Assembly: GCA_963996245.1 (NCBI GenBank)
Contig: CAXEIY010000248.1
Coordinates: 44,701-108,700 of the forward strand
Reading direction: 5' to 3'
From: an uncultured Planctomycetia bacterium
GTDB taxonomy: Bacteria; Planctomycetota; Planctomycetia; CAXEIY01
Length of the DNA: 64,000 nucleotides
The translations under genes were made by a program, and so were the position numbers. Shown here piece after piece: positions 37,424-59,092 of the stretch. Position 1 is the first letter of the stretch. Each line of letters opens with the position of its first letter. The notes beneath the pieces are model-generated. The model had not been told where the DNA came from, searched no databases, and saw only the letters and a list, made by a program, of their open reading frames with translations.

Positions 37424-40400
37424 TCAGCTCCCCCAGTTCAGTGCGCTTTTCCAGCATTCTTTCAGCGTCTGAATACTTTCCTCAATCAGTACCGTCGCCA
37501 TGGGATCATCGGGTTGATTGGAACCATCCGTAACCTTCAACTTCGGTTCTTCCAATACTCGACCAACGAATTCCACTTCCCTGTTCCGTCTACTTCCATC
37601 TGCCGTATGTTCCATAACGGCAATAAACTCGTTTTGAACATCTGGCGAAACTTCAACGAGAAACCGCGAATTACTTTCCGAAAAAAGCAACACACGCTGC
37701 AATGCCATCCCCTCTGATGGACCTTCCAAGCCTTGGTCTATTAAATGACTCTTTTCTTTTGAATGCAAATCGATCCAGGCGCCGCACCCTCCCGAAAAAG
37801 CCATCTCCGCCAGGCTTACAGCTAATCCACCCTCACTCAAGTCATGACAACTGCGTACCAATCTTTGCTTGATAGCAAGATGAAGGCGACGATAGGATTT
37901 CAGTGCTGCATCAGTGTTCAACATGGGAACAAATCCGCCAGTACAGTCGTGAATGTACTCGTAATGGGATCCACCCAGTTCATTGGAGGTCTTGCCTACC
38001 AGAAAAATCAAGTTTCCGGGTTCCTTGAAATCCATAGTGACGCACTCGTGCACATCGGCTACCTGCCCCAGTGCACTGATCAACAATGACGGCGGAATGT
38101 TAATCGTTTTATGAACCCCCTTTTTCAATTCATAGCGGAATTCATTATTGAGACTATCCTTACCACTGATAAAAGGCGTTCCATACCGACTGGCAACATC
38201 TGAACAGGCAAGCGCCGCACGCACCAGGCTTCCCAGTGTCTCGGGGTAATCGGTATTCCCCCAACAAAAGTTGTCCAGTAATGCAATGCGGTCAGGATCG
38301 GCGCCCACTGCAATACAGTTGCGGACCGCTTCATCAATCGCACTTGCAGCCATCCAGTAGGGATCCAGTTCTCCATAACGCGGATTCATTCCACAGGCGA
38401 TCGCCAGTCCTCTCGAGGATCCGAATACAGGACGAATGACAGAAGCATCAGACGGTCCATCATTATGAACTCCCACTAAAGGCTTTACGACTGTTCCGGC
38501 TCGAACCTCATGATCATATTGCCGAATAACCCATTCCTTCGAACAGATATTCAAGGACGCAAGAAGTCTTAGAAGATCCTCTCGAAAATCACTGTGCTCT
38601 GGATAACCGGAGGACAAAGAGTTTGTCTGTGCCATTCTCGAGTGGGCATCGGGTTGCTGGTCTATGAACGTTCGCTCTTCTTCATTGATTTCTTTACATG
38701 ACACCATACGAGTTTGAGCTGATAACTGATGCTGAGCTTCACGTACCACTCGGGGACACCCCTGGTGCAAAAAGTGCATATCAAGATCGCCTACTACGGT
38801 ATCCTGGTATTTCAAAACCAGACGACCGGTAGGTTGAAATTCACCAATCACACTTACCTCAACATCTTCGCTCTCACAAAGCTCTCGCAATTCTTCCCAA
38901 TGATGAGGTGGAACAGAAAGTACCATTCTCTCCTGGGCTTCACTGATCCATATCTCTGTGTAAGAAAGCCCTTCATACTTCAACGGAACCCGTTCCAACC
39001 ATATTTCTGCCCCAATTTCAGCACCCATTTCTCCCACAGCAGAACTAAATCCTCCCGCACCACAGTCGGTAATCGCTGTATACAGTCCTCGATCGCGTGC
39101 CACCAGTAAAACGTCCATCAACATTTTTTCAGTAATCGGATTTCCAATCTGAACCGCACCACCTGAAATAGCTTCCGATTCGTGTGTCAGTTCGAGTGAA
39201 GAAAAAGTAGCTCCATGAATACCATCACGGCCGGTTCGACCGCCCATTGCTACCACCCAATCCCCGGCCATGGGTTGTTTCTCGCATCGATGGACAGGTA
39301 TGGTTCCGACTGTTCCACAGTAAACCAGAGGATTCCCTACATAACGTGGGTCAAAAAACACAGCTCCGTTTACCGTAGGTATTCCCATTCGGTTACCATA
39401 GTCCCGAACCCCACTCACAACCCCTCTCATCACCCGCTTAGGATGCAGTACGCCTGGAGGTAATTCGCTAAATTCTGTATCCGGTGGAGCAAAACAAAAC
39501 ACATCGGTATTAGCTACCGGGCGCGCCCCCAGTCCTGTCCCCAGAATGTCACGGATCACACCTCCCAGACCGGTATTCGCACCGCCGTATGGCTCAATCG
39601 CAGATGGATGATTGTGTGTTTCCACCTTAAAACACACATGGTATTGATCATCAAATTGAACAATTCCTGCGTTGTCCTCAAACACACTGACACACCAGTC
39701 CTGATCCGGACCCAGATTCGACCTCACTTGCTGCGTCGCAGAAAATATGGTTTCTTTCAGTAGATTGTCAAAATGGATCTCGGTCCCTTTTTGCCCATCT
39801 GCGGTCATCTCCTGATAATGAATACGCCCTTTCAGTGTCTTGTGGGAACAATGTTCACTCCATGTCTGAGCAATCGTTTCTAATTCAATATCTGTCGGAT
39901 CACCACCTCTGTCCAGAAAATGTGACTGAATCGCTTTCATCTCACTCTCATTGAGGGAAAGCTGCCTTTCTTGACTGATTTCGATCAGTTCCCTTGCCTG
40001 GCTGTTTCGCAGCGGGACCTTAACAAGAGAAAACTCATAACCGACTCCTTGTACTAAGTGCTCTGAATTCAGTTCTCCTATGATCACCTGTTCAATAGAT
40101 TCATTGGCAAGCACTCGGTGAGCTAATAGAGACACCTCTTCATCTGACACAGGACCTTGTATCCAATATTTCTGTAACGTTCTGACTTCCTCAACAGGAT
40201 ATCCACAATCACGGATCGCATTCAGACAACTGTGTGCGACGGGATCCATCACCCCCGGCTTTCTCAAAACCTGGATCATGCTCACGTTCCTAGCATTCTG
40301 ATCCATACGGCTTCCCTGCCACTGATAATCTGACTGTTCCACAGGAAACGCCAAATAATCTTCCAAAACAGGATCTACGAGCAACTCCTGACTAATGGAT

Positions 40401-40600
40401 GCCAGAGCATCCTGGGTAAGAGAACCGTTTATCAGAAAGGCGCGAGCGGTGTGAATCGGTCCTATTTCCGAAAGGCCACTTTGAGTAGCATCCGCCGCCA
40501 CGCGTTGTCCATGTGAATCAATCCTGTCGCGTTTTGGATATACGTCAACTTCCCAGATCATCTCGATTCCGTTTCGCCCTTGTAAGCATCTTGCAAACAC
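37424..40600 (-). CDS. purL: phosphoribosylformylglycinamidine synthase PurL with two N-terminal PurS-like modules (PurS-PurS-PurL fusion)
   Basis: PurL core motifs: IAQTWSEHCSHKT, GGANTGLGGVIRDILGTG. The N-terminal roughly 200 aa contain two PurS-like units (MIWEVDVYPK...LLVDPVLEDYLAFPV and MIQVLRKPGVMDPVAHSCLNAIRDCGYPVEEVRTLQKYWIQG). The 5' end overlaps the tyrA stop by 17-56 nt, depending on which start is used. Confidence 0.85.
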   Translation of the reverse strand: MFARCLQGRNGIEMIWEVDVYPKRDRIDSHGQRVAADATQSGLSEIGPIHTARAFLINGSLTQDALASISQELLVDPVLEDYLAFPVEQSDYQWQGSRMDQNARNVSMIQVLRKPGVMDPVAHSCLNAIRDCGYPVEEVRTLQKYWIQGPVSDEEVSLLAHRVLANESIEQVIIGELNSEHLVQGVGYEFSLVKVPLRNSQARELIEISQERQLSLNESEMKAIQSHFLDRGGDPTDIELETIAQTWSEHCSHKTLKGRIHYQEMTADGQKGTEIHFDNLLKETIFSATQQVRSNLGPDQDWCVSVFEDNAGIVQFDDQYHVCFKVETHNHPSAIEPYGGANTGLGGVIRDILGTGLGARPVANTDVFCFAPPDTEFSELPPGVLHPKRVMRGVVSGVRDYGNRMGIPTVNGAVFFDPRYVGNPLVYCGTVGTIPVHRCEKQPMAGDWVVAMGGRTGRDGIHGATFSSLELTHESEAISGGAVQIGNPITEKMLMDVLLVARDRGLYTAITDCGAGGFSSAVGEMGAEIGAEIWLERVPLKYEGLSYTEIWISEAQERMVLSVPPHHWEELRELCESEDVEVSVIGEFQPTGRLVLKYQDTVVGDLDMHFLHQGCPRVVREAQHQLSAQTRMVSCKEINEEERTFIDQQPDAHSRMAQTNSLSSGYPEHSDFREDLLRLLASLNICSKEWVIRQYDHEVRAGTVVKPLVGVHNDGPSDASVIRPVFGSSRGLAIACGMNPRYGELDPYWMAASAIDEAVRNCIAVGADPDRIALLDNFCWGNTDYPETLGSLVRAALACSDVASRYGTPFISGKDSLNNEFRYELKKGVHKTINIPPSLLISALGQVADVHECVTMDFKEPGNLIFLVGKTSNELGGSHYEYIHDCTGGFVPMLNTDAALKSYRRLHLAIKQRLVRSCHDLSEGGLAVSLAEMAFSGGCGAWIDLHSKEKSHLIDQGLEGPSEGMALQRVLLFSESNSRFLVEVSPDVQNEFIAVMEHTADGSRRNREVEFVGRVLEEPKLKVTDGSNQPDDPMATVLIEESIQTLKECWKSALNWGS

Positions 40601-41483
40601 CTTCCATATCAGACTGACTGAGTAATTCCCGATACGTTTCGAGCTCTTGAATCAGTCGGGCCAGTGCTTCCAGCAGTGCCGTTTGGTTCTGATCAAAAAT
40701 TCCACTCCATAACTCAACATCACCCGAAGCAATACGGGTGGTATCTCGAAATCCACTTGCCGCTAACTCATGATATGAGGGATCCAAAGAGCCTGCCAAT
40801 GCAGAGGCCATCAAATGGGGGAGGTGACTGGTGTGCGCCAACGCCATGTCATGTGCTTCCGGCCCCATCACTCTGACTTTAGCTCTCAATTCTTGCCAGA
40901 ACTGGCTCACTCTCTGGATTGCAGAAGGAGGTGTCGACGCGGTCGGTGTAACAACACAGATCGCTCCATCAAACAGGTCACTTCTGGCATGCTCGACTCC
41001 CTGTTTTTCCGATCCCGCTAACGGATGGCTCCCAATAAAAACAACTTCATTCGGCAAGGGGGCATGGACAGCAGAAACAATCGCCTCTTTGGTGCTACCC
41101 GCATCCGTCACAAGTGCCCCACGAGGTGCGAACGCCGCCACCTGATTCACGAAATCCGGTATCTGCTGTACCGGAGTACAGACGATGATCAGTTCCGCAT
41201 CGGCAACGCCTCGATCCAGCTGAGTAGTCGTGGAGTCGATTGCTCCCAGATCTTGAGCACGGGACAAGCGTGTGCTGTTCCTGCCAATACCCACTACATG
41301 CTGCGCTAACTTATGCTGCCGCAACGCTAGCCCAATTGACCCACCGATCAATCCCACTCCGACAATAGCAATCCTATCCCATTTCATTGCATTTATGGCA
41401 TCACACGTGTACGAATAAATCCCCTCGGTTACCTGTGAACCACCATAAGGGCTTACACGAAAAAGTCCAGACATAACGATCAC
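40545..41483 (-). CDS. tyrA: prephenate/arogenate dehydrogenase
   Basis: Rossmann IAIVGVGLIGGSIGLAL. Conserved IIVCTPVQQIPDFV...FIGSHPLAGSEKQG...FDGAICVVTP blocks. Confidence 0.8.
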   Translation of the reverse strand: MIVMSGLFRVSPYGGSQVTEGIYSYTCDAINAMKWDRIAIVGVGLIGGSIGLALRQHKLAQHVVGIGRNSTRLSRAQDLGAIDSTTTQLDRGVADAELIIVCTPVQQIPDFVNQVAAFAPRGALVTDAGSTKEAIVSAVHAPLPNEVVFIGSHPLAGSEKQGVEHARSDLFDGAICVVTPTASTPPSAIQRVSQFWQELRAKVRVMGPEAHDMALAHTSHLPHLMASALAGSLDPSYHELAASGFRDTTRIASGDVELWSGIFDQNQTALLEALARLIQELETYRELLSQSDMEGVCKMLTRAKRNRDDLGS

Positions 41484-41571: not shown

Positions 41572-44500
41572 TTACTGTCTAACCTCGTCGTCTGTATCAG
41601 GATCCAATTCTCGCCGACTATCTACGTTAGCCTGGGAGGGAGACACAACATTACGGTTCCAATGAGGTGTCTTACGATGCCGGGAAGTAAAATCCTCATC
41701 CAGATCTGTTTCGTTGTTTTCGCCAGTTACCGTTGACTCGGAATCGGGCACTGAAAAATTTCCATCTTCTCGAACATCTTCAAAACGCACAGCCACACGG
41801 GTTGAAACACCTGATTCCTGCATGGTAACACCGTATAAGACTCCAGCATTGGTCATCGTGCGTTTAGAGTGAGTGATGATTACAAACTGCGTATCCTGTC
41901 TGAATTCCTCCAGAACATTCATAAGACGATCGATGTTACTTTCATCCAAAGCAGCATCGACTTCATCAAAAACACAAAATGGACTAGGCCGACTACGAAA
42001 TATTGCCAGTAGAATGGCTAGTGCAGTGAGTGTTTTTTCACCTCCGGAAAGCTGAGAAATACTTCGCGGTTCTTTACCCGGTGGTCTCGCAATAATTTCA
42101 ATACCACTTTCCAAAATATTGTCTTCATCTTCCAATACGATTTCCGCTCTTCCACCGCCAAACAGTTTTCGAAACAAGTCTTGAAAATGCTCTCTGACAG
42201 CATCCAGTGTCGATGCAAACAAACGGCGGCTTTCCGCAGCAATCTTCCTCAGAATTTCTTCCTGACAGGCTTTGGCTTCTGACAAATCCACGTGTTGTTT
42301 TTTCAGGGTTTCCAAACGTTCTTCAAGCGATTCTAACTCTTGTAACGATTCCAGGTTTACAGGACCAAGAGATGACATACTGGCTTGAATTTTATCAATC
42401 TCCTTCTCCATTTCCTGGTACACCTGATCATCTGTCACATCAAAAAGTTTTTCGATATTTCCATGCTCTGTAGAATCGAAATCACCTCTTCCCGTTTCCT
42501 TGTTTTCCGATGTCCATCGCAATAGAACTAACGGGGCATTCTGAACATTCTCTTCTACCTCACTAGCCTGACGCGCTAATCGATTCAGATCGACGCCATA
42601 ATATTCTCCCATTCGGTCATCGAGCGTCTTCATTTGTTGGCTTAATTGCTCAACCAGTAGATCCTTTTTATGGACATTTTCTTCACACGCATGAATGGTT
42701 TCTCGCAAACATGCCAGCTCTGAATACATCCCTTTGCGACGCGAATGCAGTTCGTCATATTCGAATGAACATTCTTCTAACTGTTTTTTCCCTTTTTCCC
42801 ACGCCAAATACACTATGGCCAATTGAGATTCGGACTTCAAAATAGCACGAACGGCGGCAGTTACCCGGTTTTGGCTATCCGTAATTTGCTCCTGCAATCG
42901 CCCCTGACGTTCTCGAAACTGGGTTCGTTGCCCATTCATTCTTGCAATGTCTTGTCTCAAGGTCTCGATTCTTTCACTTTTTTTCGCACGCCGAATTTTG
43001 ACCTGTGTCACATGCCTTTCAAATTGCTGCCGCTGCTGGTCATCTGAAAGAACGCTGGCCTCGAGCTGTTTGATTTTAGCCTGTTGTTTTTCAACATCCC
43101 GCTGTACCTGTTGAAATTCCTCTTTCGTCACTTTCGCATCTTGTTCCAGATCACGAAGACTCTCTTCCATCTGACCCAGTTCCAACAAACTTATGTCATA
43201 CTGCTCTTGTAACTGATCTATTTTATGGTTGGTTTGTTCTTGATCCACTTTCCGAAGTGCCAGATTTTCACGTTCCCGATCCAAATCATTTTGAAGCGTT
43301 CTCTGAGTGGATTCGCATTCCGCTATGTCATTTTGCTGTCGTTGATAAATGATCGATTGTGTTTCAATCTGACTTTCCAGCAAGGTAATACGAGCCCCCA
43401 TCTCTCTCAGCTCACTGTTGCGTACAATGGGTCCCATCCCATTATTTCCCACCCCCACTTGAACATTACCATTGCCATCTATCATTTCTCCATTGTGGGT
43501 AACAAATCGGAAATTATGTGCTTTTGTTTCTTGGTAAAGTCGAATGGCACAGGGCAAGTCAGGAACAATCCATGTTTTTGATAGTAAAACATCTACCAAC
43601 CCTCTAAGTTCAGATGTCACTTGTACATGTTCATCTGCACGTATCATACCTTCAAGACACGGTGGAACCGCGTCCCAAGAATCTGCAGTGTCCTCACTTG
43701 ATGTTTTCAAAAACACAACACGATCTTTTTCCTGCTGCGTCTCAGGTGTGTTGGGAACCTCCTGGTAATACGTGTCGTCGGTGACAATTCCTACCCGGTT
43801 AGTCACATCACTCGCAATGTCCAGTAAGAGCTGTCTTGAATCTTCCATGGAGTCGAAAACAAGAAACGAACTGTACTCTCCGAGCGCTACTTCGATCAAA
43901 GGCGCATATTCCATGTCGACTTCCATTAGGTCTGCAACGATCCCTCGGAAATATCTCCATGGACCAGGATCGGATCTCTGACTAAGTGTAAATGCTTCTT
44001 GAGCACCTTGAGTGATCCCTTCCTGGGCATTTTGCAGGTCACGCAGCACGTTCGCACGTTCGGTGGCTGCTGCACACTGCTGACGTAACTGGCTCAGCTC
44101 TTCCTGAACCTGGTCTCGCTTCTGCATCTGTTCCTTTATACGTTGTCTTCCCTCGTCCCACCGTGATTGCAGTTTGTCTACTTTACCCTCTGATTGCAGC
44201 CGGAAATTTTCTAGCTGACCAGCCTGAGTTTGTAATCCCACCAAACGCTGTTCTGTCTGTTCTTGACGATGTCGTAGTCGATCACACCCCTGATTATAAT
44301 TCGATTGTTTTGCTTCGTACCCAGCTGAATCATTGGAAAGAACGGTACTTTTTCGGATCAAATCCATTAGTTCAATACGTTCTTGTTCTAACAATTCCCG
44401 TTGCTTGCCGACGCGAGACATATGCGTCTCATATTCCGTTTCACACCGTGTGACTTCCTCAGACTGAAGCGACAGCTCTGATTGATTGTTTCGTAATGAT

Positions 44501-45528
44501 TCCTGAGCAATATCTTGTCTATTTTGGAGGTCTTGTATGGATTGAATAGCTTCCAGCCAAAGTGCACGCAATCGTGTCAAATCGTTGTTCCACTCATCCA
44601 CACGTAGCCGAAAGTTTTCACACTTGCTAACGTCCGCGTCCATTTGACGACGCTGTTCACCTAACGTCTTGGTGACCACTGTTCGTTGCTGTTCCAACTG
44701 TGCAAGTGTTTGCTCCACCTCCTGTACCTGTTGTTCCAATTGGACAACCTGATCGTTCTTCCGATGCTGCTCTTGCAGCATGGTTTCCTTTTCTTGACGT
44801 ACAACTGCCAAGTCATGAAACGACTCCAAGTAGTCTTTCAACCCAAGGGAAAGCCGCAAAGAGCGTAAGCGAGTGTTCCATTGCTGATGACGTCTCGCCC
44901 GTGACGATTGTTGTCGCACATTACGCAACTGCCGTTCCACCTCTGACACAACGTCATTGGCACGCAATAAATTCTGTTCAGCCTGATGTAACTTACGTAT
45001 CGACTCATCCCTGCGCATCTTGAAGCGACTGATTCCAGCCGCCTCTTCAAAGACAAGTCTTCGGTCACGATTCGAAGACTGAAGTAAGATATCTACCTTT
45101 CCCTGTTCAATAACACCATACGCCTCGGTCGTGACTCCTGTCCCGGCAAACAGTTCACGAATATCTCTTAACCTGACAATCTGACGATTGATTAAGTACT
45201 CCCCATCGCCTCCCCGATACACTCTCCGTGTAATCGCAACTTCTTCTGACTCAATACCGAGCAAACCGGATTGATTATCAAAAACAAGAGTCACCTCAGC
45301 CATTCCAAGACTGCGACGAGTCTGGGATCCATTAAAAATAACGTCGGCCATTTCCTGGCCACGCAAGCTTTTCGGACTTTGGGCACCGAGAACCCACTTC
45401 AATGCATCGACCACATTCGATTTTCCGGACCCATTGGGGCCGACAACAGCCGAAATGCCTTTGTCAAATTCGAAGCGAGTTTTATCCGCAAAACTCTTAA
45501 AGCCGATCAGTTCAAGCGATTTAAGCAT
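41572..45528 (-). CDS. smc: chromosome partition protein Smc
   Basis: N-terminal Walker A FKSFADKTRFEFDKGISAVVGPNGSGKSNVVDALKWVLG. Long coiled coils and a hinge. C-terminal ABC signature LSGGEKTLTALAILLAIF, Walker B CVFDEVDAALDE and H-loop. The likely start is MLKSLELIGF at 45528 (track ORF 45570). There is an acidic C-terminal tail of about 90 aa. Confidence 0.9.
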   Translation of the reverse strand: MLKSLELIGFKSFADKTRFEFDKGISAVVGPNGSGKSNVVDALKWVLGAQSPKSLRGQEMADVIFNGSQTRRSLGMAEVTLVFDNQSGLLGIESEEVAITRRVYRGGDGEYLINRQIVRLRDIRELFAGTGVTTEAYGVIEQGKVDILLQSSNRDRRLVFEEAAGISRFKMRRDESIRKLHQAEQNLLRANDVVSEVERQLRNVRQQSSRARRHQQWNTRLRSLRLSLGLKDYLESFHDLAVVRQEKETMLQEQHRKNDQVVQLEQQVQEVEQTLAQLEQQRTVVTKTLGEQRRQMDADVSKCENFRLRVDEWNNDLTRLRALWLEAIQSIQDLQNRQDIAQESLRNNQSELSLQSEEVTRCETEYETHMSRVGKQRELLEQERIELMDLIRKSTVLSNDSAGYEAKQSNYNQGCDRLRHRQEQTEQRLVGLQTQAGQLENFRLQSEGKVDKLQSRWDEGRQRIKEQMQKRDQVQEELSQLRQQCAAATERANVLRDLQNAQEGITQGAQEAFTLSQRSDPGPWRYFRGIVADLMEVDMEYAPLIEVALGEYSSFLVFDSMEDSRQLLLDIASDVTNRVGIVTDDTYYQEVPNTPETQQEKDRVVFLKTSSEDTADSWDAVPPCLEGMIRADEHVQVTSELRGLVDVLLSKTWIVPDLPCAIRLYQETKAHNFRFVTHNGEMIDGNGNVQVGVGNNGMGPIVRNSELREMGARITLLESQIETQSIIYQRQQNDIAECESTQRTLQNDLDRERENLALRKVDQEQTNHKIDQLQEQYDISLLELGQMEESLRDLEQDAKVTKEEFQQVQRDVEKQQAKIKQLEASVLSDDQQRQQFERHVTQVKIRRAKKSERIETLRQDIARMNGQRTQFRERQGRLQEQITDSQNRVTAAVRAILKSESQLAIVYLAWEKGKKQLEECSFEYDELHSRRKGMYSELACLRETIHACEENVHKKDLLVEQLSQQMKTLDDRMGEYYGVDLNRLARQASEVEENVQNAPLVLLRWTSENKETGRGDFDSTEHGNIEKLFDVTDDQVYQEMEKEIDKIQASMSSLGPVNLESLQELESLEERLETLKKQHVDLSEAKACQEEILRKIAAESRRLFASTLDAVREHFQDLFRKLFGGGRAEIVLEDEDNILESGIEIIARPPGKEPRSISQLSGGEKTLTALAILLAIFRSRPSPFCVFDEVDAALDESNIDRLMNVLEEFRQDTQFVIITHSKRTMTNAGVLYGVTMQESGVSTRVAVRFEDVREDGNFSVPDSESTVTGENNETDLDEDFTSRHRKTPHWNRNVVSPSQANVDSRRELDPDTDDEVRQ

Positions 45529-45600
45529 ATCCGCACTGAATGGGTATCGCCCCAAAAGAACATCGTCCACATTAACTACCGAGCTCCATTGACTCGATTG

Positions 45601-47463
45601 TCAATCGGTGGAAGACCGGCCAAAAATTTTAGCAAAAAACCCGACACGCGTATCTGATGGATCTTCCTGTTCACGTTCGAGTTTTACCGAATCACTCTCG
45701 GTCGAAAGCTCTGAGGCTTCCACCGTTTCCTTCCGCACACTTTCTGGTATCACATTATTCGAAAACAATCCCGGGAGTTGATCAAACCAATTCCCCGAAT
45801 CAGTCGCTTCTACCTTCTCCAGTCTGCGGCTCAAACGCGCCGACAGACGACCAGCCCGTGGCAGCGTATCGACCGCCACAACTCCGTTAATATTGCCTTG
45901 AGCCTCCGCATGTGCCAACATTCCTACCACATCAGAATAACTGGCCCCAAGCTCTACAGCGATATCAATAACGTCAGAAATACGTGAAGACGTCTTTCGG
46001 GTATCGGGAGTCCTCCCCACTCCAAAACGTTTAATCACAACCCCATCCAGATTTCCATCACTGTGAATCTGGATATTGTTTCCTGCTTTCAGGAACAAGG
46101 GAGTGACAAATTGCTGGTTCATCCCAAACAATACCAACTCGGGTCGAAAGCTACGGGCAACATGGATCAAAGGAGGTCCCAGGGTTGGAACTTCGTGAAC
46201 AAAAAACCGATTGGCCACATTCCGACCATTTAACCGAGGGTGTGATGAATCCAGAACGTATAATGCGCGAAAGGCGCCATATCGTAATTCCGCACTGGAA
46301 CTATCCAGCAAACTCAATAACGCATCAAAAGCAGCTGGCGTACCCAGTGAAGTTAACGCGGTAAGTGCAAAAACACGGAAAGCCGGTTCCTCGCGAGCAG
46401 CAACAGACAATGCCTGCGCACCACTGGACTCCCCGAGATAGGCCAGTGATTCGGCAACAAAAAAACGCACTTCACTGTCTTGACTTTTATTTAATACCTG
46501 AATCAATGTTTTTTTCCCGGTATTTCCCATCCCTTCTAACTGTTGAACGAGAGCAGCCAGTAACTGCTGATTTTCAAAGGTCTCCGATGAAAGCAGTGCT
46601 TTTTCCATTTTTTTAGCGCGTTCGTTGCGCTCTGAATTAGTCTCACTCAAAGTCATATTTCTGACAACCGACAAATAACGCGGCAGATTATGACGATAAT
46701 TACGATCGACCACCAAGTCGATGTACTGAGGCCGTTTGGCAGTAGCGGCGCCTTTTGCACCACGAGTTTCCACAGAACGGAATTGCCGGTTAATGGAATT
46801 TTCAATCTGAACTGCAGTCACAATGTTCTGGTATTTTTTTGCGACCAGTAACTGAAGATCTCGACGACGAGTTAGTTGCACACCACCTAAAACCCGACCT
46901 CGTTGCTGCATCGAGGAATCCGTCATATCGGTGGTATCTGGACTCACCACAACTGGACCTGTAACTTTTGCCCATATCGCACCTTCGCGAATCCTGTTTC
47001 CCAATAAAGCGGTTTGAGAAAGATTGACTTCCAGGAGCAATCCGTGTCGAAGACTTTTGGTAGCGCTATTGGGAGGTACCACTACTTCGGCATCCACTTT
47101 GTCTATCTGAGAAGCACCAGGGGGAATGAATGCGCGAACCAGAACCAGTGCGGTATCTGAACTGGAAAGAAGTCCGCCAGGATCGGAAACGCCTCGTCGT
47201 GTCATTTCTTCGAACATTCGGGTCCGCCAAATAGAAGGCCTCGGATTACTCCCAGTCCCTTTGAGACCAACCACCAGTCCGACATTTTCCACTTGAATCC
47301 AATCGAGACCACCAGTTGCCGTAATGCGTCCAATGGTTTGTGTCGCTAATCCTTCAGGTGTAACCTTTTCCGCCCCAATTGCATCCGGCACCAGACTGAT
47401 CATGCACACTACCGTCAGACCGGCCAAAGTGTTCACCATGGAAAAAGGTAATCGAACGTCCAT
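45601..47463 (-). CDS. flgI: flagellar P-ring protein FlgI homolog with an internal HEAT/PBS-lyase repeat insertion and a C-terminal extension
   Basis: Signal peptide, then ENVGLVVGLKGTGSN (cf. FlgI GYGLVVGL.GTGD), KSLRHGLLLEVNL (cf. KSLRGGTLL), and a late ISDVIDIAVELGASYSDVVGMLAHAEAQGNINGVVAV (cf. FlgI C-terminus [26 protein letters not shown]). Inserted between these is a HEAT-like DSEVRFFVAESLAYLGESSGAQALSVAAREEPAFRVFALTALTSLGTPAAFDALLSLLDSSSAELRYGAFRALYVL. Confidence 0.65.
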   Translation of the reverse strand: MDVRLPFSMVNTLAGLTVVCMISLVPDAIGAEKVTPEGLATQTIGRITATGGLDWIQVENVGLVVGLKGTGSNPRPSIWRTRMFEEMTRRGVSDPGGLLSSSDTALVLVRAFIPPGASQIDKVDAEVVVPPNSATKSLRHGLLLEVNLSQTALLGNRIREGAIWAKVTGPVVVSPDTTDMTDSSMQQRGRVLGGVQLTRRRDLQLLVAKKYQNIVTAVQIENSINRQFRSVETRGAKGAATAKRPQYIDLVVDRNYRHNLPRYLSVVRNMTLSETNSERNERAKKMEKALLSSETFENQQLLAALVQQLEGMGNTGKKTLIQVLNKSQDSEVRFFVAESLAYLGESSGAQALSVAAREEPAFRVFALTALTSLGTPAAFDALLSLLDSSSAELRYGAFRALYVLDSSHPRLNGRNVANRFFVHEVPTLGPPLIHVARSFRPELVLFGMNQQFVTPLFLKAGNNIQIHSDGNLDGVVIKRFGVGRTPDTRKTSSRISDVIDIAVELGASYSDVVGMLAHAEAQGNINGVVAVDTLPRAGRLSARLSRRLEKVEATDSGNWFDQLPGLFSNNVIPESVRKETVEASELSTESDSVKLEREQEDPSDTRVGFFAKIFGRSSTD

Positions 47464-47678
47464 TGAAGTGATCCTTTACATTCCCCAAGTCAGGAAGGAC
47501 TTTTCTGTCACTCGCATGAATCTCAGAAAATCCAAGCGTACTCGAACAAAGCACTTATCAAAATAAAGGTGACAATACACCTCTGTCCAACGATATCGTG
47601 CAGCAACAGATTGACATGAGTGGGGAAAATAGGCTCTAAACCGTATAGGGTCAAGATCAATCAGCGGGCAACCTCGAT

Positions 47679-47999
47679 CTAAGGAGGATCATAACCACCG
47701 GGATGAAACGGATGACAGCGACATATCCGGAAAATGCCTTTTAAAATCCCACGTGCCATTCCATATCGCTGAATGGATTCAATCCAGTAAACACTACAAC
47801 TTGGGTAGAATCGACAACATGGCCCTAAAAACGGACTCAAACACATCTGATAAACACGAATCCCCCCAATTAAACAGCGGGATGGGAAATTCTTGAAATA
47901 GACAAGCCCGTGCCGACACAGATCTGTTAAACGATTCTTCCCTTTACAGCGATACCATCTCACGTCCTCTAACGCGGTGAAGTCAATCAACCGATTCAT
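47679..47999 (-). CDS. yidD: membrane protein insertion efficiency factor YidD
   Basis: [45 protein letters not shown] is the YidD signature. It overlaps the rnpA 3' end by 17 nt. Confidence 0.85.
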
Positions 48000-48378
48000 G
48001 GCGCCTCCCGCTGGATTCTTCCACCCTTTCCACTGCCAATGAACGACTTCTAACCGTACGTCCAGCTTTCGTCGTCAGTTGAATTAATGATTTCGAGCAC
48101 TGGGCCAAGGTGATTGGATTCGCTGTTCGTGGAATCATGATTATATCTATATTCTGCGGCAGTGAATCCCGATTCTTTCGGAAAGCTTCACGATATAAAC
48201 GTTTGATACGATTTCTTCTGACTGCATTACCCCATTTACGCGATACGGACACACCAAGACGTCTTAGACCAAGGTCATTTGGAGCCATATACACCAATAG
48301 ATACCTGTCGGCAAAACAGCAACGTCTACGATATACGCGCTGAAAATCATCCGAAGTCTTTAGCGTAGTATCAGACAT
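47983..48378 (-). CDS. rnpA: ribonuclease P protein component
   Basis: [45 protein letters not shown] is the RnpA signature. The track ORF begins at a GTG at 48390; the ATG at 48378 (MSDTTLK) is the likelier start. Confidence 0.8.
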
Positions 48379-49106
48379 TAACAGAAACACTCACTTAAGG
48401 AACCTCCATGGCTCCTGAAATCCAAGCTACCTTAACCATGGACACGATCTACCGTCTTTGTCTTCTAGGGGGGAGATTTAAATTCCACAATGAATCGGTT
48501 CGTCTTGTGGAGTGGCGACGTTTTATCAGCCAACGCATATGCCGAACACTTAAGCTCACCACTAGAATCATCCCCATACCCAAGAGACATAGGGCTAGCA
48601 AGGCTCCTGAAGCCCGGATGACAAGATCATTCATTCGAGAATCCCTAATCACGACAAAAAAGACCGCGCTGTTTTTGCTCCCAATGGTACCCAACGCTAA
48701 GAACCATGTCGGCATTGAGGAGATACCATTTGCTGACTGCTACCTTAACAGAACGTCCTTTTATTTTAATGTTCTACCTCGAGCATTGCACACATGATCG
48801 TTTCACTGTCTCAAACCGTCGACATCGAATCATCGTCATGTCTGGACAACAGGCAGCAATGTGCCTCTGCCATAGGACTGTCCAAAAAGGAAAACCTGGT
48901 CTGTCGGGTTCCAAGTGTACATGACACAGCCCCAGCTTCTGTATAACCCTGTCCTACACACCCAAAATAAATGCCCCATATCTCGATGTATACCGCAACC
49001 TGTACGTTCGCTGTTTTACAAACCGCATTGGACAATTGAAAATATGGGACTTCGTTCAATCCTATGACTGAACCCGCACACAATGTCTACTCCTGAAATC
49101 CAGAAG

Positions 49107-49562
49107 TCAATCACTCTCTTCGCGAACCAGGACGTCAATCATTTTTTGGCACATTCGTTCACGAGATTCCTCATCCGATGCCATTCGATTGGCGCGAAGA
49201 ATCCGCTGATCGTCGACATATCGTGGAATCAAATGAAAATGCAAATGAGGCACTTCCTGACCTGCTTCTTTCCCACTGTTACATATGAGATTCAGGGCAG
49301 CAGCACCAGTGGCTTCCAATACCACCTGTGACAACCGCGGCAATTCCCCAGCCAGACGGGCCATCGCTTCCGCGGAAATATCCGTTACGGTTGAACAATG
49401 TTCCACAGGTATAACCAATAAATGTCCTGTAGCAATGGGGTTGATATCCAAGAATGCCACAGTTGCTTCGTTCTGTAGAACAATCGACGCTGGAATTTCA
49501 CTCTGAACGATTTTACAAAAAATACAGCTGTCATCGGATCGCATGATGACATCTCCGGACAC
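49107..49562 (-). CDS. HIT-family (histidine triad) nucleotide hydrolase/transferase
   Basis: CIFCKI...VAFLDINPIATGHLLVIPVEH...PHLHFHLIP (HxHxHxx histidine triad). Confidence 0.85.
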   Translation of the reverse strand: MSGDVIMRSDDSCIFCKIVQSEIPASIVLQNEATVAFLDINPIATGHLLVIPVEHCSTVTDISAEAMARLAGELPRLSQVVLEATGAAALNLICNSGKEAGQEVPHLHFHLIPRYVDDQRILRANRMASDEESRERMCQKMIDVLVREESD

Positions 49563-49657: not shown

Positions 49658-50332
49658 TTAATCCTTGTCGTCTTCCGTCTCTTGTCCGGTTTCGCTGTCA
49701 GCTTCAGAGTCCGCCTCTTGCCCGTCGCCGTTGGCTTCTTCAACAGCTGTCTCAACTTCACTGTCAGATTCAGACTCAGCAGACGCTGTTTCAGGCCGTA
49801 CCATGCTTACTTCATCATCACCAACAAACTCAAGAATTGCTGTTGCACCACCATCACCAAGCCGACGTTGGGCACTACGTAAAACGCGTGTATAACCACC
49901 GGCTCTGAATTCAAAACGCGGCGCCAAGGTGCTAAAAAGAACGTCTACAGCCTTCTTGCTGTCAGGATCGCCTCCACCAAGCAAAGCTTGCACCCGTCGC
50001 CTTGCCGCAACTACAGGAGCTCTAGCCGCCGCCCATTCCTGCCATTCTGAGCTACTTTTGTCAGGCGTCTCGTTAGGACCGGATTGAAATTCCTCCGAAG
50101 CACGCTCATGGATCAATGTTCGACGTGCTATTGTGATCAGTCTCTCAACAAATGGCTGGACTTCTTTGGCTTTGGCCATAGTAGTCTTAATTCTTCCAGG
50201 CACGGCTGGCTTCCCTTCAGCATCCTCATCTGCATCTACGGTAATCAGAAGGCTCTTTGCCAAATTCCGCATCAATGCATGTCGATGTGAGTTATTTCTT
50301 CCCAGCTTTCGGCCACGTTTCCTGTGTCGCAT
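49658..50332 (-). CDS. rplQ: 50S ribosomal protein L17 with a long acidic C-terminal extension
   Basis: MRHRKRGRKLGRNNSHRHALMRNLAKSLL...KTTMAKAKEVQPFVERLITIA is the L17 core. The last roughly 60 aa are D/E/S-rich (EVSMVRPETASAESESDSEVETAVEEANGDGQEADSEADSETGQETEDDKD). Start taken as MRHRK at 50332 (track ORF to 50365). Confidence 0.85.
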   Translation of the reverse strand: MRHRKRGRKLGRNNSHRHALMRNLAKSLLITVDADEDAEGKPAVPGRIKTTMAKAKEVQPFVERLITIARRTLIHERASEEFQSGPNETPDKSSSEWQEWAAARAPVVAARRRVQALLGGGDPDSKKAVDVLFSTLAPRFEFRAGGYTRVLRSAQRRLGDGGATAILEFVGDDEVSMVRPETASAESESDSEVETAVEEANGDGQEADSEADSETGQETEDDKD

Positions 50333-50392
50333 AATTCGCTCTTTTACTGAAGTCCCTCTCTTCACAGAGAGAATGAACTAAAATCTCTACCA

Positions 50393-51379
50393 CTAAACAC
50401 CAGTAGCCTGGTGTACCTTCATTCCCAACCTCAAACCAATCTGCTCCAAACGATCGCGAACTTCCGTTAAAGTTGTATCACCAAAATTGCGAACTTGAAG
50501 CAATTCATCTTCACGCCGGCTCACTAAGTCACGAACCGTATTAATATTTTCCATTTCCAGACAATTTGTCGCACGCACAGACAAGTTCAGCTCCGCCAAA
50601 CTCATCCGAAGTTTCTCCTCTAACTCGGTATCCACAAGTGCCGCGTCTTCCATTTCCTCTAAAGCTGCCACTTCAGGACCAGGCTCACTGTAACCCACAA
50701 ACGGCGTCAAATGCTTCCGAAGGATCTTGGAAGATTCAACCAGTGCCATCTCAGGGGTAACGGTACCATTTGTCCAAATTTCAATCGTAAGGCGATCATA
50801 ATTTGTCCGTTGACCGACACGCGTATCTTCAATCTTATATCGAACCCGTTGCACTGGTGAAAAAAGGGCATCTACAGGAATAACTCCCACCTCTTGCTCA
50901 TTTTCACGAATCACCTCGGCCCCTTGATAACCTCGACCATTCTCCAGTGTCATTTCCAGTACAAAAGGGACATCGTCCGTTAAGGTCGCAATGATATGGT
51001 CCGGGTTGAGGATCTCAATTTGATCATCACCGATCACATCGGCAGCGGTCACCACACCTCGCTCATGGCGATCAATACGCAATGTCTTTACACCATCGCC
51101 GTGATTCTTAACCACCAGAGATTTGATGTTCAGAACCAAATCCGTAGCATCTTCCACGACACCTGGCAAGGTCGCAAATTCGTGTTCTGCCCCCTGTATC
51201 TTGACCCGTGTTATTGCGCTGCCTTCCAAACTTGAAAGCATCACTCTGCGCAAACTGTTTCCGACAGTCGCACCAAAGCCCTGCTCAAATGGCTCTGCAA
51301 TAAATCGACCATAAGACGCAGTTGAATGATCACCAACAACCCTATTGGGTAACTCTAATCCACGCCACCTAATTCGCAT
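50393..51379 (-). CDS. rpoA: DNA-directed RNA polymerase subunit alpha
   Basis: N-terminal domain ([38 protein letters not shown]) and C-terminal domain ([47 protein letters not shown]). Confidence 0.9.
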
Positions 51380-51518
51380 ATGCGAACCTCCCGTTTAATC
51401 AAGGTCACCTTTTAACGCAACCCACACCAAGAACCAACAGGCCTCATGCTTTCGTTATGACCCACTGAATCGGTGAGAACCTCCAACCCTTAGCGGGAAC
51501 AACCAGCCCGCTTAATGC

Positions 51519-52145
51519 TTACCTTGAGCACATTTCGATAATCAACTGTGCTTGTACCCCAATCGATACATCACCCGAATCCGGCAAGCGTGATACGCGA
51601 CCCTCTGGTGGATCTGCACCGGTCATCTCGAGGAAATCAGGGACCTGCTGGCTCTCATCATCCAGACAAGTTTTTACCCGGTTAACACTCTTCGGACGAT
51701 TTTTCACACCAATACGATCGTCAGAACATACCAGGTAACTGGGAATATCCACACGACGACCGTTTACCAAGATATGGCCATGCTTGACAAGCTGCCGTGC
51801 TGCAGGACGACTGGGAGCGAAACCGAGGCGATACACCACGTTGTCTATACGACGCTCTAAGAGCGAGAAAAGAACTTCGCCCGTATTTCCAGTAGCACGC
51901 TCGGCAGTACGGAAATAGTTCAAGAACTGACGCTCGAATACACCGTAGTATCGCTTTACCTTCTGCTTTTCCCGCAGATGGTCAGCATAATCACTCTGCT
52001 TACCTCGACGCCATTTATGCATCCCCGGAGGTGATTCACGACGATCCACCGCACACTTCGGGGAATCACACCGCGCCCCCTTTAAAAACAGCTTCGTCCC
52101 TTCTCTGCGGCAAAGCCGACAAACTGCACCCGTTGTCCGTCCCAT
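51519..52145 (-). CDS. rpsD: 30S ribosomal protein S4
   Basis: [23 protein letters not shown] zinc-finger-like N-terminus. S4 domain ...[39 protein letters not shown]. Confidence 0.9.
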   Translation of the reverse strand: [208 protein letters not shown]

Positions 52146-52301
52146 ATTCTTCCCGTAATACCCTGAACTGCGATCTGCTTAAAGAGCCTGTTAAACCTCG
52201 AATCAATCTACCACAAGTAATTCATACGAAATCTACTGTAGCGCCTCTCAAACTTATCTCAGAACGAAAGTGTTCCTTGTATCACTGAATCCCGAAACTA
52301 A

Positions 52302-52682
52302 TTACACGCGACGCTTCTTCGGCGGCCTGCATCCATTATGGGGTAACGGGGTAACATCCTCAATTAAACGAATAGTTAAACCCGAGGAAGACAATCCCGT
52401 AATCGCACTCTCACGCCCCGATCCCGGCCCCTTAACTTTCACCTCGATTTCCTGCAAACCAAATTTTGACGCCTTCTCAGCCACTGACTCCGCTGCACGT
52501 TGAGCGGCAAAGGGCGTACTTTTCCGACTCCCCTTGAATCCTACCATTCCGGCAGAAGTCCAGCACAACACATCACCATTCACATCCGTAATCGTAATAG
52601 TCGTATTATTGAAAGTCGATTTGATGTGAGCGATACCACGAGTAATATTTCGCCTGACTTTTCGCCTCTTCGATTTTGCCAC
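52302..52682 (-). CDS. rpsK: 30S ribosomal protein S11
   Basis: [30 protein letters not shown]...[11 protein letters not shown]...[25 protein letters not shown]. Confidence 0.9.
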
Positions 52683-52755
52683 TGTGTTTACCTTTTATTC
52701 CGATTATCCTTGACCAACTATTCACCATTCTGATTTCAAAAAATCATTCGCTGAT

Positions 52756-53139
52756 TTAACGAATATCTTTGACACCCTTCTTGCCGGCAACGGTTTTCTT
52801 CGGGCCTTTTCTCGACCTCGCATTGGTCCTCGTTCGCTGGCCGCGAACAGGCAAACCACGGCGATGACGCAATCCTCGATAACACCCAATGTCGCGTAAC
52901 CGGGCTATGTTCTGTTGTAACTGTCGTCGCAACTGCCCTTCAATGACATAGTCCTGGTCCAGAAGTGTTGCAATACGCCCGATTTCGTCTTCACTCAAAT
53001 CTCTTGCGCGTCGCTGCGGATCCACTTGAGTCTTGTGGCAAATTTCCCGCGCCAGTGTATTGCCAACCCCGAAAAGCCGGGTGAGCGCAATAGCTGTCGG
53101 TTTGTCATTCGGTACATCCACACCCAAAATTCGCGGCAT
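52756..53139 (-). CDS. rpsM: 30S ribosomal protein S13
   Basis: MPRILGVDVPNDKPTAIALTRLFGVG...CYRGLRHRRGLPVRGQRTRTNARSRKGP. Confidence 0.9.
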   Translation of the reverse strand: MPRILGVDVPNDKPTAIALTRLFGVGNTLAREICHKTQVDPQRRARDLSEDEIGRIATLLDQDYVIEGQLRRQLQQNIARLRDIGCYRGLRHRRGLPVRGQRTRTNARSRKGPKKTVAGKKGVKDIR

Positions 53140-53163
53140 ATTTAAATTCCCCTGCTGTTCCGA

Positions 53164-53277
53164 TTAGCCTTGGCGCTGCTTATGTCTTGGATTAGAACAA
53201 ATGACGAAAACCACTCCCTTGCGGCGCACTACCCTGCAATTCTCGCAAAACCGTTTCACGCTCGAACGCACCTTCAT
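53164..53277 (-). CDS. rpmJ: 50S ribosomal protein L36 (zinc-binding form), missed by the ORF track
   Basis: Hand translation of the minus strand gives [37 protein letters not shown] (37 aa, C-x2-C-x12-C-x4-H). It sits 24 nt upstream of rpsM in the canonical position. Coordinates are +/-2 nt. Confidence 0.8.
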
Positions 53278-53433
53278 TTCACATCTCCAGAACCATTACT
53301 CTTACAGCGGCTTAAACAAGAGAGTATAGATTGGCGAGAGTTCAATACACAAGCCCAAAGTGCAAACCTCTCTTGATTACTCAGAGGCGTTTTTATCTTG
53401 TCCACTCAACTACCATCACAATAGCATTCCCAT

Positions 53434-54213
53434 TTATCCTTGTTCATCCAACTCCGTTAAAATTCTAACACCATCAGGCGTGATTGCCACCGTATGCTCA
53501 CAATGCGCACTTGGCTTCCCATCCTTGGTAACAACCGTCCACCCATCGGAACAGGGATACGTCTCTTTACTCCCCATATTTACCATCGGCTCTACCGCCA
53601 CCACCAAACCCGGTTCCAGTAACACATCATTTCTTCTCAGGGCTGCATTCACAAAATTAGGAATCTGTGGTTCCTCGTGTAAGGCCTGGCCTATCCCGTG
53701 TCCAACATAATTTTCGACCGATGAAAAACCGGCATCGCGAACATAGCACTCCATCTTTTCGGCAACTTGTGACCACCGTTCCTGATTGGCCATTTCGTCA
53801 ATAGCCAACTGCAATACTTCTTCCGTTATCTGAACTAGTCTCCGCACTTCCGGATCAACTTCCCCTACCATTACCGTAATTGCCGAATCGCCACACCAAC
53901 CTGCAATCTTACAACCGGTATCAATGCTTACAATATCTCCTTCACGAATCTGCCGCTGACCAGGAATTCCATGTACGACTTCTTCATTAACAGAGATGCA
54001 AATCACAGAAGGAAATTCCGATTTCGGACCGGGGTACCCTTTGAACAAAGAAAGGGCACTATGCTCCCGAAAAACTTCTTCAACCGCTTGATCGATCTCC
54101 TCGGTTGTAACTCCTGGCACACATTTGCTTCTCGCAACGGAAAGAGCCTGGGCAACGACTCTACCTGATACTCTCATCAACTCAACTTCACGTGGGCTCT
54201 TCAATGTTTTCAT
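53434..54213 (-). CDS. map: type I methionine aminopeptidase
   Basis: Metal ligands in GIPGQRQIREGDIVSIDTG, HGIGQALHEEPQIPNF, and EPMVNMG...CEHTVAIT. Confidence 0.9.
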   Translation of the reverse strand: MKTLKSPREVELMRVSGRVVAQALSVARSKCVPGVTTEEIDQAVEEVFREHSALSLFKGYPGPKSEFPSVICISVNEEVVHGIPGQRQIREGDIVSIDTGCKIAGWCGDSAITVMVGEVDPEVRRLVQITEEVLQLAIDEMANQERWSQVAEKMECYVRDAGFSSVENYVGHGIGQALHEEPQIPNFVNAALRRNDVLLEPGLVVAVEPMVNMGSKETYPCSDGWTVVTKDGKPSAHCEHTVAITPDGVRILTELDEQG

Positions 54214-54265
54214 GATTTATATTCGTAACCGTTTTTTATTTCCCAAAGGGCTCTGACAGCTGAAT

Positions 54266-54919
54266 CTATTTGGTTTCAATCAACGCCAACAGCCTCTGCC
54301 CAACCTGCTCGACTGTCCCGATCCCATCGAACTCTTTTAGTAGTGAGCGTTGTCGATAATACTCGATCAACGGAATGGTCTCTTCATGATATATCCGCAA
54401 CCGATTACGAACCGTTTCCTGATGGTCATCGTCGCGCTGAATTAACCGATTTCCACATCCATCGCATATTCCGTCTCGTTGAGAAGGATCATACTTAATG
54501 TGAAAGACTTTTTGGCAATCAGGTTCCGTACAAACACGCCTGCCGCTTAAGCGATCAACAATCTCACTATCACTCACCAACGGCAACAATACTCCATCCA
54601 ATTGCTTGGATGACTTTTCCAGAAACTGCCCGAGTGCCTCTGCCTGCCCCATCGTTCTTGGAAAACCATCTAGTAAGAATCCTGAATCGCAATCATCCTG
54701 ATCTATCCGATTCACGACAACCGCCGTCACAAGATCATCCGGAACCAGTTCACCTCGTTTCAGATAAGGATCCACCTGTAATCCGACCTCGTTACTCTCT
54801 GCTACAGCTTGACGAAACATGGCGCCGGTTGAAAGATGAAGCACGGATACCGTGTCTACAACACGCTGAGCTTGGGTGCCTTTTCCAGAACCGGGAGGAC
54901 CAAGTAAAATCAGACGCAT
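54266..54919 (-). CDS. adk: adenylate kinase (Cys4 lid-domain form)
   Basis: MRLILLGPPGSGKGTQAQ P-loop. The lid has CTEPDCQKV...CDGCGNRL (Zn-binding type). Start taken at MRLILL at 54919 (track ORF 54940). Confidence 0.9.
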   Translation of the reverse strand: MRLILLGPPGSGKGTQAQRVVDTVSVLHLSTGAMFRQAVAESNEVGLQVDPYLKRGELVPDDLVTAVVVNRIDQDDCDSGFLLDGFPRTMGQAEALGQFLEKSSKQLDGVLLPLVSDSEIVDRLSGRRVCTEPDCQKVFHIKYDPSQRDGICDGCGNRLIQRDDDHQETVRNRLRIYHEETIPLIEYYRQRSLLKEFDGIGTVEQVGQRLLALIETK

Positions 54920-55017
54920 AATGCCACCGCAATTTATCATGGAACGTGTAACCGAAACTGTAGCAGATTGCGGAAACGCACTTTTGCATCCCCATGCAGC
55001 ACAATCCCACCAGCAGG

Positions 55018-56349: not shown

Positions 56350-56395
56350 GGGAGCCGGCTCCCCGACTGGCTAATGAGATACCACTTCCACGGCC

Positions 56396-56839
56396 CTAAA
56401 CAATTACGACTGTCCCACCCGATTTTTCTATCTTTTCCTGGGCAGTCTTAGAAAAACGATTGGACTCAACCGTTAGTGATTTGGTCAATTCTCCGTTACC
56501 GAGAATCTTCACACCATCAAATCGCCCCTTGACCAAGCCCGCCTCAAGCAACCCCTCTGTGTCAACGGTAGCACCCGCTTCAAAATTTCTTTCCAAAGCA
56601 GCAAGATTGACCACCACAAACGTTTTTCTCCACCGATTATTAAACCCTCTCTTGGGAATTCGACGTGCCAAGGGCATCTGACCACCCTCAAACCCTCGCG
56701 GAGGAAGACTTCCGGCGCGACTTCGCTGCCCCTTATGCCCTCGTCCAGCGGTCTTCCCTTGGCCGCTGCCAGGACCACGTCCAATCCGTTTTTTTGATTT
56801 GCGAGAAGCCACTCCCTGATGTACATCGTGCAGTTGCAT
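56396..56839 (-). CDS. rplO: 50S ribosomal protein L15
   Basis: KKRIGRGPGSGQGKTAGRGHKGQRSRAG...GQMPLARRIPKRGF. Confidence 0.9.
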   Translation of the reverse strand: MQLHDVHQGVASRKSKKRIGRGPGSGQGKTAGRGHKGQRSRAGSLPPRGFEGGQMPLARRIPKRGFNNRWRKTFVVVNLAALERNFEAGATVDTEGLLEAGLVKGRFDGVKILGNGELTKSLTVESNRFSKTAQEKIEKSGGTVVIV

Positions 56840-57318: not shown

Positions 57319-57342
57319 AGTTCACCGATTCCCTCTAAAAAA

Positions 57343-57711: not shown

Positions 57712-57767
57712 CGTTTTCTGTCTTATCCGGACAAACTATTGTAATAAGCAACCTCAGGAGCCAATGC

Positions 57768-58319: not shown

Positions 58320-58364
58320 AAAAGCCTCTCCACTACGACCAACGCTCAACACCCATACCAACTA

Positions 58365-58760: not shown

Positions 58761-58830
58761 GAGCTGGGCTCCCACTTTCCAAACAAAACTACTTCTTACC
58801 GCTTAACACGGGGCGTCTACTTCCTCTTGC

Positions 58831-59016: not shown

Positions 59017-59092
59017 CTCAGTCCCGTCTCTTTTTGAAAAGTACAAAACAATACCAATACTTCAGGATCCCATACACCTGAACTCCAACCTG

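Follow-up and report, generated by a model that had tools for sequence, protein, structure and literature searches.

What is the role of a FlgI-like protein whose chain is interrupted by HEAT repeats and whose gene stands beside smc? The question is raised by a 64,000-nucleotide (nt) stretch of DNA from an uncultured Planctomycetia bacterium (contig CAXEIY010000248.1, positions 44,701 to 108,700 of the forward strand), hereafter called the window. The gene concerned lies on the minus strand at 45601-47463, and we refer to its product as FlgI-HEAT. An initial annotation, made from the letters alone, had offered two explanations, either a remodelled P-ring protein or a FlgI fold recruited for a periplasmic ring without flagellar function. 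Neither is proven; the evidence favours the P-ring, and on balance we lean towards the view that FlgI-HEAT is the P-ring protein of planctomycetes and that its ring has a solenoid collar built into the outer rim. Public pipelines already label many members of the family 'FlgI', and the automatic names 'FlgI' or 'HEAT repeat protein' both hide an architecture that appears to be undescribed in the literature that we searched. The same full-text searches gave no description of planctomycete P/L-ring gene content or of a linkage between such a gene and smc, the sole relevant remark being that a planctomycete genome has 'P-ring genes' (Cavalier-Smith 2006).

A HEAT module within a complete FlgI chain

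The FlgI-HEAT gene starts with ATG and runs uninterrupted over 620 codons to a stop codon, and its translation contains all the strings quoted in the initial annotation (GLVVGLKGTGSN, KSLRHGLLL and VIDIAVELGASYSDVVGMLAHAEAQG). The Pfam FlgI family PF02119 matches the protein with E = 4.1e-18 (65.8 bits, gathering cut-off 25.3). This match is limited to amino acids (aa) 47-278, which correspond to profile positions 5-231 of 343. PF13646 (HEAT_2) is matched with E = 1.4e-11 (44.9 bits, gathering cut-off 27.7), and the HEAT block also matches alphaRep/HEAT structures in the PDB. The protein measures 620 aa, whereas single-chain FlgI has ∼345-365 aa, and it includes a 135-aa HEAT insert and an 85-aa tail. 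Both parts had been recognized from the sequence, the insert with an estimated 150 aa and the charged tail with 100 aa; both are present, and both are somewhat shorter than supposed.

The part of the chain that follows the HEAT block bears on the architecture. We cut the post-HEAT segment (aa 412-548) from the family alignment and used it as a profile. It aligned with the C-terminal ∼45 residues of five different FlgI proteins of solved structure, each time in one and the same end-to-end register (E = 0.013-0.05 for each). Moreover, this segment alone matches PF02119 in 11 of 22 family members, the best with E = 4.7e-5, so that the C-terminal resemblance to FlgI noticed at the outset was confirmed. 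In the family profile from which the HEAT block had been deleted, positions 4-235 align with residues 21-246 of the Salmonella FlgI precursor and positions 310-354, which hold the helix pair, align with residues 320-364. Mature FlgI is divided into the domains FlgI-IRU (residues 12-159), FlgI-OR, the outer rim (1-11 and 160-230), and FlgI-IRL (231-346) (Yamaguchi 2021, PMC8298488). Since the N-terminal alignment stops at precursor residue 246, that is mature residue 227, the insertion point falls at precursor residue ∼246-250 (mature ∼227-231). The alignment check that had been proposed thus maps the insertion: the HEAT block is placed exactly at the OR/IRL boundary, as an internal insertion beyond which the FlgI sequence resumes. 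Because the chain departs at this boundary, the insert should lie on the outer-rim side, peripheral to the rod-facing surface, a position in which obstruction of the pore would not be expected. An insert at a defined domain boundary also represents a natural experiment on what the P-ring tolerates.

All three FlgI domains, the C-terminal helix pair included, are retained in the window protein. The equivalents of IRU and OR (aa 45-272, nt 46648-47331) are collinear with Salmonella FlgI. They are followed by the inserted module (aa 273-408, nt 46240-46647) with nine helices in ∼4-5 repeats, and then by the IRL equivalent (aa 409-535, nt 45859-46239), in which beta strands precede the terminal helix pair flanked by strands. 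The charged tail (aa 536-620, nt 45601-45858) is predicted to be disordered, with a predicted local distance difference test score (pLDDT) <50 at aa 552-608. At the N-terminus, a hydrophobic segment ending in AIGA can be read by eye, and a signal peptide of the cleavable type without a lipobox is read from the sequence at aa 1-31 (MDVRLPFSMVNTLAGLTVVCMISLVPDAIGA|EK; nt 47371-47463), by which the protein is predicted to be exported.

The AlphaFold model of the window protein agrees with this domain order. Its pLDDT is 80 overall and >90 over most of aa 45-545; the HEAT region appears as nine consecutive helices at aa 276-404, and the C-terminal elements form a strand-helix-helix-strand unit (strand 487-491, helices 495-504 and 509-521, strand 528-531). 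The C-terminal domain of FlgI pairs strands between neighbouring subunits of the solved ring (Johnson et al.), and the modelled elements after the insert fit the domain so described. In Foldseek, the four best PDB matches are FlgI chains of solved LP rings (E = 4e-12 to 3e-11). Over ∼503 columns, the alignments include ∼305 FlgI residues and therefore run across the HEAT insert. Together with the PF02119 match, they bear out the original assignment of the protein as a FlgI homolog.

Two trivial origins of such an architecture were considered. A HEAT module fused to the C-terminus of a truncated FlgI was rejected because of the C-terminal FlgI match. An assembly or annotation artefact, in which a frameshift joins a FlgI gene to a gene for a HEAT-repeat protein, would account for the unusual length, and frameshift-split copies do occur in some related contigs (L088 and several short entries). 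However, the same architecture is found in hundreds of full-length orthologs that come independently from different assemblies, the FlgI sequence resumes past the HEAT block, and a 620-aa copy 93% identical to the window protein is present on many contigs. We regard the chance of an artefact as negligible, in agreement with the initial annotation, which had invoked the uninterrupted reading frame. The split copy in L088 (5686-7377, plus strand) belongs to a divergent member and consists of a 314-aa FlgI part and a 238-aa part with the HEAT block and the C-terminal domain, the latter matching the window protein with E = 2e-27; the split is probably a frameshift in a contig whose coverage is just 4.4x.

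The insert itself resembles the PBS-lyase-type HEAT proteins (PF13646, PF03130 and the alphaRep designs in the PDB) in sequence and in predicted structure. These are stand-alone and mostly cytoplasmic proteins, whereas FlgI-HEAT embeds 4-5 repeats in a periplasmic, beta-rich protein.

Extent and conservation of the FlgI-HEAT family

The label 'orphan', which had been attached to the gene, is misleading. FlgI-HEAT constitutes a large, old and tightly conserved family across the Planctomycetia, and every named source belongs to the Planctomycetota. A word-indexed search gave 377 relatives, the best 120 of which all measure 539-755 aa and contain both PF02119 and PF13646; those with a name are assigned to Pirellulales, Thermoguttaceae or Planctomycetota. 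When each GTDB species was represented by one genome, at least 596 of the species genomes scanned carried FlgI-HEAT, and the 80 loci kept among the matches listed are all from Planctomycetota, the cultured genus Botrimarina included. An exhaustive HMMER search of 1.84 billion representatives with an N-terminal, FlgI-only profile yielded 417 clusters (50% identity) at E <= 1e-30, and no HEAT-less close relative was present in the top 150 of these representatives. Matches of 300-450 aa, which were candidates for such relatives, were without exception fragments from contig ends or frameshifted copies that break off inside the HEAT block. A search started from the divergent member P0041 gave only the labels Planctomycetaceae and Planctomycetota.

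The family is divided into three subclades: a Pirellulales-type clade, to which the deep marine branch of the window belongs, a Planctomycetaceae-type clade with members of 620-755 aa, and a Pirellulaceae-type clade with shorter members (520-547 aa) that includes the cultured Stieleria varia. As all three carry the HEAT insert, the insertion predates their split. Conservation was measured in an alignment of 242 sequences, which covers the two clades linked to smc (Pirellulales-type and Planctomycetaceae-type). The mean entropy of the HEAT block is 1.37 bits versus 1.36 bits for the FlgI core, and 39 columns of the block reach >=90% identity; a conservation equal to that of the FlgI core argues for a specific binding function of the module. 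The C-terminal strand-pairing element is among the best conserved parts of the protein (1.23 bits). Moreover, H423, H434, E442 and F446 are near-invariant across these two clades. No counterpart of H423, H434 and E442 was seen in the canonical FlgI sequence, and the equivalents of H423 and H434 are not kept in the Pirellulaceae-type clade. The three residues (nt about 46138-46197) may form a metal or structural site.

A feature that the initial annotation did not mention is a near-universal lipobox. Most members have a lipobox and behind it a linker of ∼30 residues. The strict pattern is found in 177 of 207 family members; of the sequences that deviate, most are truncated gene calls or have a variant xGC box. 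The 90% cluster of the window protein and P0002 lack a lipobox, so that the marine clade of the window is a real exception: most members of the family are predicted lipoproteins, and those of this clade are predicted not to be.

The disordered tail is found in all members, with a median length of 85 aa and ∼19% acidic residues at the family median, and it carries two short motifs which had likewise escaped attention. The window protein has QLPGLF at aa 562-567 and GFFAKIFGR at aa 608-616 (nt 45616-45642), the latter close to its end. The corresponding PxPxLF motif occurs in 70 of 141 Pirellulales-type sequences versus 8 of 94 of the Planctomycetaceae type, and the terminal GFFxKhhG peptide in 86 of 141 versus 9 of 94. 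In a deeper model of P0014, the PxPDLF segment is predicted with a pLDDT of 71-77 as a short strand that lies against the body of the protein, and the terminal tail peptide has a pLDDT of 53-62.

These properties could also be those of a periplasmic lipoprotein adaptor with a FlgI fold that forms no ring and whose HEAT module and tail motifs bind envelope proteins. The strongly conserved HEAT surface and the short linear motifs of the tail are in line with such a function; a lipid anchor on a long linker is typical of tethered adaptors, and the AlphaFold monomer is confident on its own. However, the element by which the subunits of solved P-rings pair their strands is retained and belongs to the best conserved parts of the chain, and all three ring domains have remained intact over a deep phylogeny. 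We consider an adaptor of this kind very unlikely.

P-ring or non-flagellar ring

The P-ring reading is the most economical one: a complete FlgI fold and the ring-forming element have been strongly constrained in a class with flagellated swarmer cells. Flagella are described for both cultured carriers in the locus set, Botrimarina colliarenosi and B. hoheduenensis (PMC7717034). FlgI-HEAT shares with canonical FlgI (Salmonella; PDB 7BGL, 7CLR, 7CBL; PF02119) the domain order IRU, OR, IRL, the motifs GLVxGLxGTG and SLRGG, a predicted export to the periplasm and the C-terminal helix pair flanked by strands. It differs in the 135-aa HEAT insert, the 85-aa tail, the lipidation of most members, the lack of conservation of Lys63 and Lys95, the near-invariant H423, H434 and E442, and the position of the gene beside smc instead of flagellar genes.

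In such a motor, FlgI-HEAT subunits would assemble as a FlgI-type ring around the rod via the retained C-terminal strand-helix-helix-strand domain, and each subunit would add one alpha-solenoid module. Because the insertion leaves from the outer-rim domain, these modules would be placed at the periphery or underside of the ring, where together they would make up a built-in collar. This collar could offer a conserved binding surface, for example to peptidoglycan-associated partners or to the periplasmic domains of the stator. In most members, the lipid anchor on its ∼30-residue linker would tether the ring to the membrane and so fix its height. A comparable arrangement is known for FlgH, the L-ring lipoprotein, in which, as in the lipobox-bearing members, a long linker at the N-terminus leads in extended form to the lipidated Cys that serves as anchor; the P-ring is kept at its proper height by the tethered L-ring (Johnson et al.). 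However, FlgH has no sequence or fold similarity to FlgI-HEAT, and the lipobox is here borne by a FlgI fold and is absent from the window protein.

Accessory rings are found in other flagellar motors: the T-ring of Vibrio (the Sel1-repeat protein MotX with MotY) and the PflA/PflB TPR scaffolds of Campylobacter and Helicobacter surround the P-ring. Like the proposed collar, they consist of helical-repeat modules around or beneath the P-ring that could act as a scaffold, a likeness of possible mechanism and not of membership. In these bacteria, separate TPR or Sel1 polypeptides dock on the ring, whereas in FlgI-HEAT the solenoid lies within the FlgI chain. If FlgI-HEAT is a P-ring protein, the bushing protein of planctomycete motors itself includes an accessory periplasmic collar, for which no separate subunits are added. 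Motor elaboration would then have followed an evolutionary route unlike that of Vibrio and Campylobacter, and an extra ring density should be visible by cryo-tomography.

Several observations weigh against a flagellar role, and some of them concern the chain itself. The NCBIfam models score far below their cut-offs, with 57.2 bits versus 300 for the FlgI subfamily NF003676 and 30.3 bits versus 557 for the FlgI equivalog NF009430. In Salmonella, Lys63 and Lys95 of mature FlgI (K82 and K114 of the precursor) contact the rod (PMC8298488; Johnson et al.). In FlgI-HEAT, these columns hold mostly P/G/S/N and T, respectively, with K in 15 and 10 of the 242 sequences, and the window protein has S102 and K136 at the aligned positions; the loss of the rod-contact lysines had not been noted in the initial annotation. 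The Arg of SLRGG is replaced by Asn in 89 of the 242 sequences. The segment equivalent to the rod seal, which was expected beforehand to be the best conserved part, is averagely conserved (entropy 1.43, with 1.42 in the body; it ranks 235th among 458 windows), and this expectation was dropped. Furthermore, most FlgI-HEAT members are lipidated, whereas canonical FlgI is not a lipoprotein. In a neighbour-joining gene tree, the Pirellulaceae-type clade falls outside the smc-linked forms with 62% bootstrap, a topology that could mean an old paralogy or a long branch.

The genomic context adds to these objections, since the sole conserved neighbour of the gene is the housekeeping gene smc. The 27 other open reading frames (ORFs) scanned at 579-49562 of the window yielded housekeeping genes and no flagellar Pfam family, in accordance with what had been reported from the sequence, and flagellar genes are absent in 10 of 11 Pfam-annotated related loci. 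A sigma-28 promoter, for which a search of the 215-nt upstream intergenic region (47464-47678) had been suggested, is not supported: the consensus is absent in the window, and sigma-28-like and sigma-54-like sites each occur in 1 of 78 upstream regions, below background. In this upstream region of the window, sigma-70-like matches are weak and at chance level.

The eleventh of the annotated loci, a Planctomycetaceae-type contig (L084), contains on the minus strand at 19151-21968 genes for an SRP54-type GTPase and a ParA/MinD-type ATPase, a 75-aa ORF and a sigma factor with sigma-70 regions r2, r3 and r4. This flhF-flhG-fliA-like order lies 7-10 kb downstream of the FlgI-HEAT-smc pair, and it does not recur in the other ten annotated loci.

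The linkage to smc, which became apparent only from the comparison of loci, is strong. Enough downstream DNA for a judgement was available in 62 related loci. In 59 of these, smc is the next gene downstream in the same orientation, the median distance being ∼150 nt; on the other side, yidD is upstream in 35 of the 62 and rnpA in 34. smc also follows the gene in seven long contigs annotated with Pfam (L081-L087), which represent both smc-linked clades, and in a 971-aa variant (L089), and all neighbours other than smc differ between the annotated loci. A stable pair of this kind is unusual, given that every other neighbour varied, and it points to a cell-cycle coupling of chromosome segregation with the construction of an envelope machine in budding cells. 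The linkage may reflect a shared, probably cell-cycle-timed, transcription. A physical interaction is unlikely because SMC is cytoplasmic and FlgI-HEAT is exported. Moreover, the Pirellulaceae-type clade (L088, L090, L091) is not adjacent to smc and keeps the architecture, which suggests that the function of the protein is independent of the smc linkage.

The same observations are those expected of the second explanation, in which FlgI-HEAT is a FlgI-derived periplasmic ring or scaffold without flagellar role that is co-expressed with SMC and involved, for example, in the organization of the bud neck or division site. The smc linkage persists across clades that are ∼38% identical while the other neighbours change, and the absence of flagellar neighbours and flagellar-type promoters in the scanned regions, the loss of the rod-contact lysines, the lipidation of most members and the strong divergence from canonical FlgI all agree with this possibility; the gene tree allows an old duplication. 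In addition, most of the canonical genes for division are missing in planctomycetes, and how these bacteria divide is unknown (PMC12288469). On the other side, direct contact with SMC is implausible for an exported protein, the Pirellulaceae-type clade keeps the protein apart from smc, the named cultured carriers are flagellated, no canonical FlgI that might take the place of the P-ring protein was seen, although no search aimed at one was made, and a non-flagellar FlgI is undescribed in the literature searched. Such a ring is possible, and we judge it unlikely. If it existed, it would bear on how the FtsZ-less planctomycetes divide. A more specific form of this idea, which seems to us doubtful at best, would restrict it to the smc-linked proteins: these would form a lipid-anchored FlgI-derived ring with a HEAT collar, co-transcribed with smc and located at the bud neck or division site, and the flagellum would be served by the Pirellulaceae-type form or by an undetected canonical FlgI. 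In that case, FlgI-HEAT would be a first candidate for a structural division component.

Neighbouring genes and other features of the window

Pfam confirmed the flanking genes named in the initial annotation, all of which lie on the minus strand. Downstream of FlgI-HEAT, smc occupies 41572-45570 (SMC_N from aa 15, and SMC_hinge); upstream are yidD (47679-47999; YidD) and rnpA (47983-48390; Ribonuclease_P). In the smc ORF as listed, the GTG start lies 14 codons ahead of the conserved SMC N-terminus (MLKSLELIGFKSF). As the SMC_N match sets in at aa 15, Met15 near 45528 is probably the true start, which would bring the gap to FlgI-HEAT to ∼72 nt. Depending on the start, the distance from the stop codon of FlgI-HEAT to smc is 30-72 nt, and this gap contains no terminator-like match. 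No Rfam match was obtained in 45000-49200. The ORFs at ∼49658-64000, which lie outside the Pfam-scanned part and were judged by eye, include rplQ, rpoA and rpsD.

Among the related loci, gene calling breaks smc into two to four consecutive ORFs in L082, L085, L086 and L089, all from ENA metagenome assemblies; these split calls are most likely frameshift errors of assembly and not real gene splitting. In two Planctomycetaceae-type loci, smc is followed on the plus strand by a gene for a 190-aa response regulator with an HTH_17 domain (L083, 17044-17616; L084, 16654-17226), which may be a second conserved neighbour within this clade.

Elsewhere in the window, a complete topoisomerase VI subunit A/Spo11-type protein is encoded on the plus strand at 579-1748 (TP6A_N, Topo_VI_alpha and Toprim; E = 5e-57), an enzyme of archaeal/eukaryotic type that is uncommon in bacteria. 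A same-strand cluster at 15046-30068 (plus) comprises genes for a 1470-aa PQQ beta-propeller/TPR protein, a MoxR AAA+ ATPase, a DUF58 protein, a BatA/VWA protein, a VWA protein and a 1238-aa DUF4175 protein, and resembles a MoxR-VWA system of the Bat/aerotolerance type. Within the DUF4175 ORF, the segment 28001-30000 has an AT skew of 0.298, versus <=0.11 in almost all other segments of this size, and no tandem repeat that would explain the skew was found there. Finally, the minus-strand gene at 37424-40600 encodes a PurL with an N-terminal PurS domain (PF02700, aa 109-172) and thus a fusion of PurS and PurL. As listed, it starts 56 nt within the end of a prephenate dehydrogenase ORF (40545-41483), and the real start is therefore probably located further downstream.

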